From assembly GCA_016183175.1 (NCBI GenBank), contig JACPFC010000016.1:11932-75931 (forward strand): 64,000 bases of DNA. Reading direction: 5' to 3'. The stretch is from Deltaproteobacteria bacterium. Its GTDB lineage: Bacteria; UBA10199; SBBF01. The position numbers and the translations under genes were made by a program. The notes under the pieces were generated by a model. The model searched no databases and was not told the origin of the DNA. It saw nothing but the letters and a program-made list of their open reading frames with translations. Shown here piece after piece: positions 15,339 to 53,798 of the stretch (its first letter is position 1; every line of letters starts with the position of its first letter).

Positions 15339-16042
15339 TTTTTATGCCTTCCAAAATAGTCAAACGAAAGGATTTTGAAGGAAAGCTGGGCTTGGAAGAT
15401 CAGGTTGCGCGGGACGAGGGTGCCGCCGTCGGTTTTTCCTCTGCCGGTGAGCGCCGCGTGATCTCCCGGGATGTTTACGCGGCTGTCTCCGAGGCCCAAA
15501 AAATCATCGACGAAGCCAGGGGCGAGGCGCAGAGGATCAGGCGGGAGGCCGAAGCCCTTTTGAAGCGGATCAACGGGGAGATGGAAAAGGCAAAAAAAGA
15601 GGGATTTGAAGAGGGGAGGGAAGAAGGGCTCGCCCAGGTCTCCGAACTGCTTCTCGAAGCGACACACGCCAAAGAAAAGATGTTCGAAGGGATCGAGAGG
15701 CAGGTGATCCGGCTGGTCTACGATATTTCGGAAAAAATCATCGGGCGCGAATTGGGCGAACATGAAAAAACGATTGTCGATCTGATTCGTCAGGCCCTGC
15801 AGGCCGCGGTCGGAAAAAATATCGTCATTCTCGTGAACGGCCGGGATCTGGAAACGGTGCGGGCCCACCATCCGCAGTTACTGCAGGCCCTGGATACGTC
15901 GCGGACCGTTCAAATTCGGGCGGATGAAAAGGTGGCCCCCAAGGGGTGCCTCATCGAGACCGAAATCGGGACGATCGATGCCCAGCTGGAGACGCAGTTG
16001 GAGGCGATCCGGAAGGCATTAGGAATTGAAGATGGTGCCTAG
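15335..16042 (+). CDS. fliH: FliH/SctL-family ATPase stator and regulator
   Basis: Coiled-coil, charged N-region (EARGEAQRIRREAEALLKRINGEMEKAKKEGFEEG) and C-terminal FliH/YscL-like domain; immediately precedes the ATPase. Confidence 0.55.
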   Translation: MIFMPSKIVKRKDFEGKLGLEDQVARDEGAAVGFSSAGERRVISRDVYAAVSEAQKIIDEARGEAQRIRREAEALLKRINGEMEKAKKEGFEEGREEGLAQVSELLLEATHAKEKMFEGIERQVIRLVYDISEKIIGRELGEHEKTIVDLIRQALQAAVGKNIVILVNGRDLETVRAHHPQLLQALDTSRTVQIRADEKVAPKGCLIETEIGTIDAQLETQLEAIRKALGIEDGA

Positions 16043-16104
16043 GTGCCCGGGGGCCCGGGTGCCCGCGTAAACACGGGCACACAGGCACTCGGGTACTCGG
16101 GCAC
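16035..16104. repeat. R1 palindromic octamer-repeat element, copy a (between fliH and fliI)
   Basis: ggtgcct aggtgccc gggggccc gggtgccc gcg TAAACA cgggcaca caggcact cgggtact cgggcac. Confidence 0.85.
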
Positions 16105-16108
16105 TTTT

Positions 16109-17440
16109 ATGGTTCAAACAGCACAAATCATCGATTTCGAAAAATACCGCCGGGCGGTGGCCAACCTGAATCCCTACAAGGTCAAGGGGAAGGTCAACGA
16201 GCTGACCGGCCTGGTGGTGAAGGCGGTGGTGCCGAATGTCCGTGTCGGCGAACTTTGCCTCATCGAATCGTTTTACCGGCGCGAACCGATCAAGGCCGAG
16301 GTGGTTGGTTTCAAGGACAACAGTGTTCTGCTGATGCCGCTGGGCGAGTTGGAGGGGATCGGGCCGGGAAACGACGTGGTTCCCACGCGCGACTGTCTGC
16401 GGGTGCCGGTGGGCCCCGAACTTTTGGGGCGCGTCCTCGACGGCCTCGGCGATCCGATGGATTCGGCGCAAAAAGGGCCTTTGAACTGCAAAGAATTCTA
16501 TCCGGTGCACACAAGCCCCCCAGATCCGCTGGCGCGCAGACGGGTCACCCGTCCGATTTCCGTCGGCGTCAAGGCGATCGACGCCATGCTCACGGCGGGG
16601 GAGGGGCAGAGGCTCGGTCTTTTCGCGGCCGCCGGCGTCGGCAAGTCGGTGCTGATGGGGATGATCGCCCGCAACACCGAGGCGGAGATCAATGTCATCT
16701 GCCTGGTGGGGGAGCGGGGGCGCGAGGTGCGCGATTTTCTCGAACAGGATCTGGGGGAGGAGGGGCTGAAGCGGTCGGTGATTGTCTGCTCCACCTCCGA
16801 CAAGCCCTCGCTGGTCCGGGCCAAAGCGGCCTATGTGGCCACCGCGATCGCCGAATATTTTCGCGATCGGGGAAAAAGGGTTTTGCTGATGATGGATTCC
16901 ATCACCCGCTTTGCCCGGGCGCTCCGCGAGATCGGCCTGGCGGTCGGCGAACCTCCGGCGCGGCAAGGCTTTACGCCGTCGGTCTTTTCCACCCTCCCGC
17001 GCCTTCTGGAGCGGTCGGGAAATTCCGACAAAGGCTCAATCACCGCCTTCTACACCGTGCTGGTGGAAGGGGATGACATGAACGAGCCGGTGGCCGACGA
17101 GGTTCGATCCATTCTTGACGGACATGTGATTCTCTCCCGCGACCTGGCCAACCGGGGGCATTACCCGGCCATCAATGTTTCGGAATCCATTTCCCGCGTG
17201 ATGGTCAACATTGTCGAGCCGGAACATATGGAGGCGGCAGGCCGGCTCAAGGAGGTGGTAGCCAACTATGAGAAGGAGCGGGATCTGATCCTGATCGGCG
17301 CCTACGAGGCCGGTTCGAATCCGGCGGTCGACTACGCCATCGAAAAGATCGACGAGGTGAATCATTTTTTAAAGCAGGGGATGCAGGAGGCGGTTTCATT
17401 TGAAGAGGCGGTGGAGGGGCTGAAAGGGTTGTTTGAATAA
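16109..17440 (+). CDS. fliI: Type III secretion / flagellar export ATPase FliI/SctN
   Basis: Walker A GLFAAAGVGKS and Walker B VLLMMDSITRFA; the whole length matches the FliI/YscN layout. The listed ORF starts at 16043 inside repeat R1a; the likely start is MVQTAQI at 16109, in frame. Confidence 0.9.
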   Translation: MVQTAQIIDFEKYRRAVANLNPYKVKGKVNELTGLVVKAVVPNVRVGELCLIESFYRREPIKAEVVGFKDNSVLLMPLGELEGIGPGNDVVPTRDCLRVPVGPELLGRVLDGLGDPMDSAQKGPLNCKEFYPVHTSPPDPLARRRVTRPISVGVKAIDAMLTAGEGQRLGLFAAAGVGKSVLMGMIARNTEAEINVICLVGERGREVRDFLEQDLGEEGLKRSVIVCSTSDKPSLVRAKAAYVATAIAEYFRDRGKRVLLMMDSITRFARALREIGLAVGEPPARQGFTPSVFSTLPRLLERSGNSDKGSITAFYTVLVEGDDMNEPVADEVRSILDGHVILSRDLANRGHYPAINVSESISRVMVNIVEPEHMEAAGRLKEVVANYEKERDLILIGAYEAGSNPAVDYAIEKIDEVNHFLKQGMQEAVSFEEAVEGLKGLFE

Positions 17441-52553: not shown

Positions 52554-52628
52554 GTGCCCGGGTGCCCTGGTGCCTGAGTGCCTGGGTAAGAACGCGGGCA
52601 CGCAGGCACACAGGCCCGTGGGCACGTG
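52554..52628. repeat. R1 palindromic octamer-repeat element, copy d (between prkA and yeaH-like)
   Basis: gtgcccgg gtgccctg gtgcctga gtgcctgg gtaagaacg cgggcacg caggcaca caggcccg tgggcacgtg. Confidence 0.85.
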
Positions 52629-53741
52629 AATGTGATATTAAAAATCGAACAAGACTACAGCCGCTTCAAACAGATTGTTCGAGGCAAAATCAAACAGGAG
52701 TTGAGGAAGTTCATCACCCGCGGCGAGTTGATCGGAAGGCAGGGAAAAAAATTCATCAGCATCCCCATTCCGCAGATCGACATCCCCCGCTTTCGCTACG
52801 AAGACCGCCAGATGGGAGGGGTGGGGCAGGGCGAAGGGGCGGTCGGCACTCCGATTGCCGTCGATTCCGAGGGGGAGGGACAGACGCAGGCGGGCAATGC
52901 CCCTTCCGAACATATCCTGGAGGTGGATGTCCCGCTCGAGGAGATGGCCCAGCTTTTGGGCGAGGAACTGGAGCTTCCGCGCATCCTCCCCAAGGGGACC
53001 GACCGGGTTGTCTCCACAAAAACCGTCTATCGCGGCGTCCGCCCCGCGGGGCCGGAGTCGCTCCGCCATTTCAAGCGGACCTACAAACAGGCGCTCAAAA
53101 GGCAGATCCTCTCCGGCGGGTACAACCTCAATCGCCCGATCGTCATCCCCTACGGCGAGGACAAGCGCTATCGGAGCTTCAAGGTGATTCAGGAGCGCGA
53201 ACGCAGGGCCGTGATCATCTACATGATGGATGTCTCCGGCTCGATGGGACAGGAACAGAAAGAGATCGTCCGCATCGAGACCTTCTGGATCGACATGTGG
53301 CTCCGCTCGCAATACAAGGGGCTGGAAACCCGCTACATCATCCATGACGCCGTGGCCCGCGAGGTGGATGCCGACACCTTCTATCACACGCGGGAGTCGG
53401 GGGGGACCATCATCTCGTCGGCCTACCGCCTGGCCTTGAAGATCGTCCAGGAAAATTATCCCCCCTCGGAATGGAATATCTACCCCTTCCATTTTTCCGA
53501 CGGCGACAACTGGTCGGGTAACGACACCATGGAGTGCCTGAATCTGATGGAAAAGGAGTTTTTCCCCGTCTGCAACGTCTTTTGCTACGGGCAGGTGGAG
53601 AGCGAATACGGGAGCGGCCAGTTCCTGAAGGACCTGAAAGACCGGTTCGGCGAGAGTCCCGATTGTCTGCTGACATCCAAGATCGAGGGGAAAGAGGGGA
53701 TTATCGAGTCGATAAAGGCGTTCCTCGGAAAAGGGAAATGA
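52626..53741 (+). CDS. YeaH/YhbH-family protein (DUF444, vWA-like)
   Basis: Conserved partner of PrkA; IIYMMDVSGSMG is a MIDAS-like motif. Confidence 0.8.
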   Translation: MNVILKIEQDYSRFKQIVRGKIKQELRKFITRGELIGRQGKKFISIPIPQIDIPRFRYEDRQMGGVGQGEGAVGTPIAVDSEGEGQTQAGNAPSEHILEVDVPLEEMAQLLGEELELPRILPKGTDRVVSTKTVYRGVRPAGPESLRHFKRTYKQALKRQILSGGYNLNRPIVIPYGEDKRYRSFKVIQERERRAVIIYMMDVSGSMGQEQKEIVRIETFWIDMWLRSQYKGLETRYIIHDAVAREVDADTFYHTRESGGTIISSAYRLALKIVQENYPPSEWNIYPFHFSDGDNWSGNDTMECLNLMEKEFFPVCNVFCYGQVESEYGSGQFLKDLKDRFGESPDCLLTSKIEGKEGIIESIKAFLGKGK

Positions 53742-53798
53742 GTGCCTGTGTGCCCGCGTGCCCGTGTTTACGCAGGCACCCGGGCACTCGGGCACGTG
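53742..53798. repeat. R1 palindromic octamer-repeat element, copy e (between yeaH-like and spoVR-like)
   Basis: gtgcctgt gtgcccgc gtgcccgtg TTTACG caggcacc cgggcact cgggcacgtg. Confidence 0.85.

Follow-up and report, generated by a model that had tools for sequence, protein, structure and literature searches.

How do long hairpins come to occupy the tight junctions between genes of bacterial operons, and how might such junctions accommodate them? The question is raised by a 64-kb stretch of DNA (hereafter the window) on contig JACPFC010000016.1 of a groundwater metagenome-assembled genome (MAG) labelled Deltaproteobacteria (GCA_016183175.1), whose PrkA is 100% identical to MBI2339136.1. Five palindromic elements built from GTGCC-containing octamers lie in short gaps between co-directional genes of the window, and the initial annotation of this DNA had proposed that they form an undescribed repeat family. 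Here we report that the five are copies of one dispersed family, that they occur in both orientations at junctions without an element in relatives, and that each carries a GTG beside the stop codon of the upstream gene. The account that we favour, with moderate confidence, is that of a lineage-specific, non-autonomous DNA palindrome family whose copies have spread at the DNA level into operon stop/start junctions. All copy counts given below rest on these 64 kb of one contig.

A dispersed family of GTGCC octamer hairpins

The five copies (c1 to c5, coordinates on the + strand) share one build, with 3–5 tandem octamers per arm, a TAAA/TTTA loop and then the inverted octamers, and span 54–79 bp. 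Copy c1 (16035–16104) lies at the fliH(sctL)|fliI(sctN) junction and consists of 4 + 4 GTGCCYGN units around a GTAAAC loop, while c2 (25326–25387), between a tetratricopeptide repeat (TPR) protein gene and a gene for an unknown 267-aa protein, is the sole perfect palindrome (26/26 bp). Copy c3 (47567–47645), at mlaE|mlaF, is in inverted orientation with a TTTA loop; c4 (52554–52625), at prkA|yeaH (DUF444), has the loop GTAAGAAC and begins right behind the prkA TAA; and c5 (53742–53795), at yeaH|spoVR, is again inverted, with 3 + 3 units. On the + strand the loops therefore read GTAAAC or GTAAGAAC in c1, c2 and c4 and GTTTAC in c3 and c5, and the flanks of all five read (A/G)GTGCC...GGCAC(T/A/C/G). 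Pfam searches identified the flanking products as FliH|FliI (the type III secretion system (T3SS) ATPase) for c1, MlaE|ABC ATPase for c3, PrkA|DUF444 for c4 and DUF444|SpoVR for c5, and a TPR protein upstream of c2. The placement of the copies in gaps inside operons thus agreed with the initial annotation, as did the identity of the neighbours of c1, c3, c4 and c5; all five copies were present at the positions first given, except that the ends of c4 and c5 had been set three bases too far and lie at 52625 and 53795.

The string GTGCCNNNGTGCC occurred 21 times in the window against 0.05 expected, with 21/21 occurrences inside the five copies, and GTGCCYGNGTGCCYG with up to two mismatches occurred 28 times against 1.8 expected, again always inside them. 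Since every octamer-pair match falls within c1–c5, the window holds exactly five copies and no solo arms. The logo of the 36 octamers (G36 T34 G35 C36 C36 Y(C23/T13) G32 N) gives the consensus GTGCCYGN, which replaces the unit GTGCCYRR first assigned. An assembly artefact can be discounted, because the sequences differ between copies and the flanking reading frames are intact. The predicted RNA folds of the five were all stable, with energies of −42.1 to −63.0 kcal/mol, z scores of −5.7 to −10.7 and 0/200 shuffled sequences as stable. The long perfect hairpins anticipated from the sequence were accordingly found as stable folds in every copy, but perfect pairing is confined to c2: the hairpins of c1, c3, c4 and c5 are series of 5–7-bp helices broken by 1×1 mismatches at the spacer position.

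After c3 and c5 were reverse-complemented, a 22-nt asymmetric centre, GTGCCYGCGTAAACACGGGCAC, was common to 5/5 copies, and this shared centre, together with the two orientations, identifies the elements as one dispersed family of long hairpins. For comparison between copies, units were anchored on the loop and homologous positions were compared; the pairwise comparisons are not independent and the figures are descriptive. Identity was 94.7% (284/300) at the five core bases and 63.9% (115/180) at the three spacer bases. Intact core bases numbered 177/180, the deviations being GGGCC twice and GTACC once, and none of the three was compensated on the opposite arm, which indicates that the sequence is conserved and not merely the pairing. 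This suggests that something reads the GTGCC sequence, which could be a requirement for the spread of the element or a host factor. Complementarity between arms at the spacer positions was at chance level (28/54 observed against 0.53 expected). Purely random spacers were nevertheless ruled out by the between-copy comparison, as c1 and c3 share the arm spacer string CGA CGA TGY CGT; part of the spacer sequence was passed down from an imperfect master palindrome, from which the copies have diverged freely at the spacers but scarcely in GTGCC. Arms of 3 to 5 units occur among the copies.

A search with the family core GTAAACACGGGCACNNNGGCAC returned one match in metagenome contigs, which on inspection was due to chance and contained no element, and none in viral contigs. 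No relevant paper was found for the octamer strings in a full-text literature search, and broader searches on palindromic and short-repeat elements gave PMC3733652 and PMC4692102 as the only relevant ones. Rfam 15 gave 0 matches to the copies at gathering thresholds, and a permissive Rfam search gave only eukaryotic microRNA-precursor noise (25–31 bits, against gathering scores of 78–100).

Insertion at junctions that are empty in relatives

In relatives with conserved gene order, PrkA and FliI share 83–84% aa identity with the proteins of the window. Two of them (L121 and L124) keep the order Maf-x-MlaE-MlaF-MlaD-PrkA-DUF444-SpoVR-LeuRS-HolA, L124 with an extra small ribbon-helix-helix (RHH)/PIN gene pair ahead of prkA. 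No element was present at the c3, c4 or c5 site in either genome: mlaE|mlaF reads TAAATG in L121 and TGATATG in L124, prkA|yeaH is a 6-nt gap and a TAATG overlap, respectively, and yeaH|spoVR is a 9-nt gap and a 4-nt gap, respectively. In a third relative (L128, orthology by BLASTP) the c1 site is an ATGA overlap of fliH and fliI and the c2 site a 17-nt gap, both without an element. No GTGCC pairs were found in 17–22 kb of the relatives' sequence, and no long inverted repeats at the L121 and L124 junctions. The junctions being empty, overlapping or near-abutting (0–17 nt) at 5/5 sites in L121, L124 or L128, the elements are lineage-specific insertions.

The C-terminus of MlaE is identical to that of L121, and that of PrkA has the same length and nearly the same residues, so that these elements lie precisely between stop and start. 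At c1 the first unit, GTGCCTAG, provides three extra C-terminal residues (DGA) and the stop codon of FliH; the alignment of FliH with its relatives ends 3 aa short of the C-terminus in the window. Candidate target-site duplications were AAATG around c5 (53736–53740 and 53806–53810) and ATGGT around c1, with nothing convincing around c2–c4. The whole element is an inverted repeat, and the window contains no insertion sequence (IS) with which its ends could be compared.

Closer relatives (L126 and L127, FliI identity 91%) allow one junction to be followed over a shorter distance. Where the window has the GTGCC octamer hairpin at fliH|fliI, L127 has (GACCAGG)4.7-loop-(GGTCACG)4.7, L126 has GTAG-type hairpins resembling repetitive extragenic palindromic (REP) sequences (5765–5877) and L128 has the ATGA overlap. 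At fliI|yscO the window has a TAATG overlap, L127 a solo (GGAGTAC)3 array, L126 (GGTTCGAY)3.4-loop-(AACTGTCG)4.4 and L128 an overlap. Judged from these sequences, hairpins at the fliH|fliI junction appear to turn over fast among close relatives, and the junction offers comparison material in four states (GTGCC octamer, GACCAGG heptamer, REP-like and empty). In the L126 and L127 hairpins the units are uniform within an arm, and each arm differs from its partner identically in every unit, which points to amplification of units within arms. L126 also contains two copies of another palindromic repeat, CTCCCCCTRACCCCATGCCATGCCGGCATGGCGTGGCCCTCTTA, at ~1945–2000 and 4990–5045, in intergenic gaps of the same T3SS operon.

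Placement at stop and start codons

The distance from the upstream stop is 0 to −8 nt for every copy, and a GTG follows that stop at +3 or +2 in 5/5 copies, the contexts being TAG|GTG, TGA|GTG, TAA|GTG and TGA|GTG, with an overlapping TA[G]TG in c3, where one G serves both the mlaE stop TAG and the first GTG, and mlaF starts at TTG 47651. In c1, where the stop is the element's own, GTG 16043 is in frame with fliI (ATG 16109) and opens a bridging open reading frame (ORF) that adds 22 codons to fliI. In c2 the first unit, GTGCCTGA, likewise provides the stop, and the bridging ORF, of 22 codons, closes with a TAA that is 4 nt ahead of ATG 25407. In c5 a 21-codon ORF runs from the GTG abutting the yeaH TGA to a TAA abutting the spoVR ATG (53808). 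No Shine-Dalgarno sequence was apparent, on reading the sequence, in the 4–12 nt between stem and downstream start except in c2.

Two hairpins with other units behave alike. At fliO|fliP of the window the junction is TAAATG, and an ORF of 43 codons traverses the hairpin and ends 10 nt into fliP; at fliH|fliI of L127 an ATGA overlap is followed by 27 codons in frame into fliI. As had been noticed at the outset, gene callers extend ORFs through the elements, so that fliI called from GTG 16043 would gain 22 codons. Between 16040 and 16111, fliH and fliI are in the same frame and are split only by the element's TAG, read-through of which would give a FliH-linker-FliI fusion.

A wider class of 7–8-nt repeat hairpins

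The window also contains at least five hairpins that share this build but use other, unrelated units of 7 nt; each begins at a stop codon or a few bases from one. On the − strand, a (CGTGACT)n/(GACGAGC)n hairpin (40–118; −31 kcal/mol, z −5.1) lies right after the stop of the TPR gene 119–1432 (−), and a (GAAAGCN)4/(TCNGCTT)5 hairpin (1343–1417) separates two co-directional genes. Of those on the + strand, the (GGTGATG/AGTAATG)n...(ACTCGTA)n hairpin (10589–10696) is irregular; it starts 3 nt past the upstream TAA, with an unknown gene before it and a T3SS-type TPR gene after it. An (AAAKKTC)n hairpin (20650–20762) lies at fliO|fliP and an (AGTCAAA)n...(TTTGACC)n hairpin (21885–21975) at fliQ|fliR. 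In L128, fliO and fliP overlap and fliQ|fliR is a 9-nt gap.

Nested within the fliQ|fliR hairpin is a palindrome (21913–21959) of a second family, AAATCCCCCC-N-CCCCCCTTT...AAAGGGGGG-N-GGGGGGATTT, of which a doubled copy lies in the divergent Maf|x region (46007–46101); a related CCCCTCTTTTTCAAAGAGGGGGG hairpin followed by a T-tract (26227–26253) looks like a true terminator behind the gene ending at 26210. At 37985–38014 (− sense), a solo array of G-rich heptamers, (GGGCTTA/GGGCTAG)×4.4, lies between two ABC permease genes and holds the TAG stop of the upstream gene. Its five G3 tracts and 4-nt loops make up a G-quadruplex motif as in the repeats of Xanthomonas and Nostoc discussed below, and it has neither an inverted partner nor a stable hairpin (z −0.6).

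Species-representative genomes were scanned with the general pattern GTGCCN3GTGCC-N8–38-GGCACN3GGCAC, which matched at least 120 genome stretches from many phyla, against only 4 of 2.9 million viral contigs. The matched stretches comprise several unrelated families, including genuine GTAG REPs, and among the matches listed none has the centre found in the window. A unit-agnostic scan of the 8-kb loci around them gave 30 further inverted tandem-repeat hairpins, with a period of 7 in 20 cases, 8 in nine and 9 in one, and units including ATAGTCG, ACGCGGAG, TGGGAGTA, TAATTAG and CGTGAAA. The same architecture was seen in Acidobacteriota, Alphaproteobacteria, Armatimonadota, Bacteroidota, Chlamydiota and others. 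An ORF stop adjoins the hairpin in 45–50% of the class, against 5.5% under random placement, where adjoining means that the stop lies −12 to +15 nt from a hairpin edge and belongs to an ORF with 100 aa or more.

In a Chthoniobacter MAG (L024, 3006–4130) five GTGCC-type hairpins occur in two runs at a spacing of ~117 nt, each inside a ~117-nt repeated unit, and so form a tandem array and not dispersed copies. In Bacteroidota a sister family with the unit GCGCCTTT (L104 4705–4757, L112 4791–4843, L113 1556–1608 and L105 5630–5684) occurs beside an abundant GTGCCTTT family (AAACCGTGCCTTTGTGCCTTGGTGTG...CACACNAAGGCACAAAGGCACGGTTT) in the same genomes; many of the Bacteroidota copies are followed by T-runs and may act in these genomes as terminators.

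Proposed spread at the DNA level and alternative explanations

The best reading of the elements is as selfish or neutral palindromes at the DNA level. When sense and antisense RNA were compared, the five copies split 3 to 2 in folding energy, without a consistent difference, and among 40 hairpins oriented by the adjacent ORF the split was 22 to 18 (Wilcoxon p = 0.97). The occurrence of both orientations and the lack of a sense-strand energy advantage suggest that the complementarity of the arms is a property of the DNA and is not kept for the sense RNA. The master would have been an imperfect palindrome of the form (GTGCCYGN)3–5, GTAAAC, (NCRGGCAC)3–5, and the GTGCC family falls within a cross-phyla class in which both arms are tandem 7–8-nt repeats with a 4–7-nt conserved core and free spacers. 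Arm length probably changes by slippage of whole units.

Such palindromes could be maintained at coupled junctions by causing little damage there. A GTG adjacent to the stop may let terminating ribosomes restart at once, and c1 and c2 bring their own TAG or TGA followed by GTG; the arms being nearly free of stops, restarted ribosomes could read into or through the hairpin, or the stem might set the old stop beside the downstream start and pass ribosomes across its base, so that the translational coupling seen in the relatives is kept. The effects on mRNA processing, stability or coupling raised in the initial annotation may be understood in the same conditional sense.

Several observations weigh against this account. 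The mismatches of one hairpin (L126 7213–7277) are all G·U in the sense strand, an RNA-type signature, and so well conserved a core might just as well reflect a function for the host or a motif bound by protein. The family core was found nowhere else in the sequences searched, so that copy number and mobility rest on the 64 kb of the window. Target-site duplication is not consistent, AAATG at c5 and AATGAC at the L127 hairpin being suggestive in a setting where, by our own estimate, a flanking 5-mer repeat arises by chance in about 1 in 8 flank pairs, and no transposase, REP-associated tyrosine transposase (RAYT) or other mobilising gene was found by Pfam among the ~60 ORFs of the window. As to the relay, the c3 ORF ends 18 nt and the c4 ORF 54 nt short of the downstream start codon, the latter after only 7 codons and at another TGA|GTG, and the openness of the ORFs through the arms is largely compositional, at least in part because (NCRGGCAC)n cannot encode stops.

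As a tentative alternative, the whole class may be the outcome of a sequence-independent, structure-directed process that seeds 7–8-nt-repeat hairpins at stop/start junctions and expands them symmetrically in many phyla. The GTGCC family would then be one lineage of its products, and the products would survive as translatable relays between coupled cistrons. If such a process operates, operon junctions would be remodelled over short evolutionary times by a kind of mobile or mutational element that has gone unrecognised.

It is unlikely, though worth weighing in view of the same G·U-only mismatches in L126, that the elements are host-selected RNA devices for intercistronic processing, stability or attenuation, which, for example as substrates of RNase III or as barriers to 3'-exonucleases, would fix the relative amounts of the upstream and downstream gene products. 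The hairpins are very stable, the copies are always directly 3' of a stop codon, the core is far better conserved than the spacers and the 26 perfect bp of c2 are long enough for RNase III. However, the orthologous junctions of otherwise conserved operons lack the elements in relatives, unrelated hairpins occupy the same junction in relatives at 91% identity, both orientations occur and the sense strand has no overall folding advantage. In addition, the three core deviations (GGGCC, GTACC) are uncompensated, so that sequence and not pairing is conserved, and the copies, apart from the TTTT behind c1, lack a U-tract and are therefore not intrinsic terminators.

That the arms are arrays of protein-binding sites, presenting GTGCC every 8 nt first directly and then inverted, with the hairpin as a secondary feature, appears improbable. 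The binder might be a DNA-binding protein (a transposase, an RHH-type or a nucleoid protein) or an oligomeric RNA-binding protein, and precedents exist in the omega repressor on contiguous 7-bp heptads and in TRAP and HutP on triplet arrays. The core data fit such a binder (177/180 core bases kept, position 8 free; 94.7% core against 63.9% spacer identity; uncompensated core changes), but at least five other units of the same build in the genome would each need their own protein, no gene for a plausible binding protein or a transposase accompanies the elements in the window and the placement within housekeeping operons has no obvious regulatory logic.

Origin in situ without mobility, by local growth of a seed palindrome at the stop/start junction through replication slippage and template switching, with the likeness between copies being convergent, is less probable again. 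It would account for the many hairpins with locus-specific units, for the internally uniform arms of L126 and L127 with consistently different partner arms, which suggest within-arm amplification, and for the variation in unit number, 3 to 5, within the GTGCC family. Polymerase slippage has also been given as the reason for the heptamer-repeat excess of bacteria (Mrazek 2007, as cited in PMC4692102). Independent origin can, however, give neither the 22-nt asymmetric centre common to five unlinked loci nor the spacer strings common to c1 and c3, and the symmetric expansion of both arms is left without explanation by slippage.

Finally, classical REPs or REP doublets forming hairpins (REPINs) mobilised by a RAYT, or canonical intrinsic terminators, are very improbable despite the palindromic, GC-rich, intergenic copies behind genes, the existence of GTAG-headed REPs containing GTGCC pairs in Armatimonadota and cyanobacterial genomes and the TTTT after c1, because the GTAG/CGTC tag is present in 0/5 copies, the length is 54–79 bp against 20–40 bp for REPs (PMC3733652), the window has no Y1 transposase, terminator scans flag no full element, 4/5 copies are without a U-tract and the sites lie within operons whose genes overlap in relatives.

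Should the favoured account of DNA-level palindromes hold, tight coupled junctions would not be the protected sites that they are taken for and would instead, in this lineage, be invaded repeatedly by hairpins of 50–110 bp while the operons stay apparently intact. The elements would further provide a system for two questions, namely the excess of 7–8-nt tandem repeats in bacterial intergenic DNA and the origin of inverted arrays. As the family is confined to one MAG lineage in the collections searched, its immediate importance is modest.

Other features of the window and its relatives

The "flagellar" cluster (10700–22800) resembles a type III secretion/export apparatus and encodes a short YscJ-like ring protein (307 aa), HrpB1/TPR, a sigma factor, a FliG-like protein, SctL/FliH, SctN/FliI, a YscO-like protein, FliM, FliN and FliOPQR, with FHA/YscD-like proteins nearby (4656–6881 and 26902–28296). 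As the window contains no flagellin, hook or rod genes, the T3SS of this cluster may be non-flagellar. A defence-type island (32858–37126) comprises a MamI-like restriction endonuclease, an N6 DNA methylase with a helix-turn-helix (788 aa) and an AbiEii-type nucleotidyltransferase toxin; there is also a PIN-domain gene at 22817–23227. An amine-oxidase/FAD gene (60309–61637) is divided into two ORFs (60309–60863 and 60912–61637), the first of which has its stop codon within a small terminal hairpin, GAGGCC-TAAAACAA-GGCCTC; the gene may be a pseudogene or have received a small insertion. Among the relatives, L124 (GCA_005240075.1, 13193–15910) encodes a SpoVR homologue with an intein (Intein_splicing + LAGLIDADG_3, 905 aa), and the PrkA homologue P0071 (1088 aa) contains intein domains too.

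Comparison with known systems

Several known elements were considered and rejected. Intrinsic terminators do not fit, as scans flag no full element, a TTTT tail follows c1 only and the sites lie inside operons. Integron attC sites were set aside in the absence of a GTTRRRY core and of a cassette structure, the elements lying within conserved operons; DNA uptake sequences are single 9–12-mers and not arrays; and the -24 boxes of sigma-54 promoters (TGGCAC) would require a -12 TTGC partner, which is missing.

[quoted passage not shown] These have defined terminal inverted repeats, target-site duplications (e.g., TA) and known or inferred parent transposases. The present elements resemble them as small insertions with inverted ends inside operons, and empty sites in relatives, by which the presence or absence of MITEs is judged, were found at 5/5 junctions. 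The elements, suggested at the outset to be MITE-like, are candidate MITEs at most: neither a convincing target-site duplication nor a parent IS or transposase was found in the window.

Mycobacterial interspersed repetitive units (MIRUs), reported by Supply and colleagues in 1997, are said to be intercistronic repeats whose small ORFs overlap or abut the flanking start and stop codons in a manner compatible with translational coupling; they are reportedly direct tandem repeats of 46–101 bp in fixed orientation relative to transcription. The intercistronic placement is shared here, and a comparable mini-ORF may be present: its start abuts the upstream stop in 5/5 copies, and its other end abuts the downstream start, or continues into it in frame, for c1, c2 and c5, with c3 and c4 as exceptions, although the inability of the right arm to encode stops makes this openness partly compositional. 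Unlike MIRUs, the elements are hairpins of 8-nt units.

REPs are palindromes of 20–40 bp with an unpaired GTAG or CGTC tag at one end and an association with RAYTs (Di Nocera et al. 2013, PMC3733652). Like REPs, bacterial interspersed mosaic elements (BIMEs) and REPINs, the copies are GC-rich, dispersed, lineage-specific extragenic palindromes, mostly behind ORFs between co-directional or convergent genes. In contrast to them, they have no GTAG/CGTC tag, measure 54–79 bp, have periodic arms and are single hairpins, not REP dimers; no RAYT/Y1_Tnp or other transposase Pfam match was found among the ~60 ORFs of the window, and the REP/BIME-like designation was therefore dropped.

The closest counterparts are the ~185 (GGGANTN)n arrays per genome of Xanthomonas, mostly of four units, of which 70–75 pairs per genome are convergent and inverted and able to form stem-loops (Rehm et al. 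2015, PMC4692102), and the (GGGGAYT)n analogue of Nostoc, related to the cyanobacterial short tandemly repeated repetitive (STRR) heptamers. These arrays are 89–93% intergenic, mostly between co-directional ORFs at a mean of 28 nt past the upstream ORF and rarely between divergent genes; they vary among close relatives, and their function is "still to be elucidated" (PMC4692102). The elements of the window resemble them in their short tandem units with conserved and free positions, here 3–5 per arm, in the convergent pairs forming stem-loops and in the intergenic placement between co-directional genes, nearer the upstream ORF. They differ in having an 8-nt unit in place of 7 nt, with a GTGCC core without a G-tract and at most three GGG tracts per arm, so that the G-quadruplex rationale of the Xanthomonas and Nostoc repeats does not apply. 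They also differ in the specific 22-nt centre common to the copies, in their position 0 to −8 nt from the stop at tight operon junctions that are empty in relatives and in the GTG beside the stop codon of each copy. The term "undescribed" thus fits the GTGCC family but not the architecture, which has been published for Xanthomonas and Nostoc (PMC4692102): the octamer family and its behaviour at junctions are new, and they extend a kind of element that is already known, though poorly understood.

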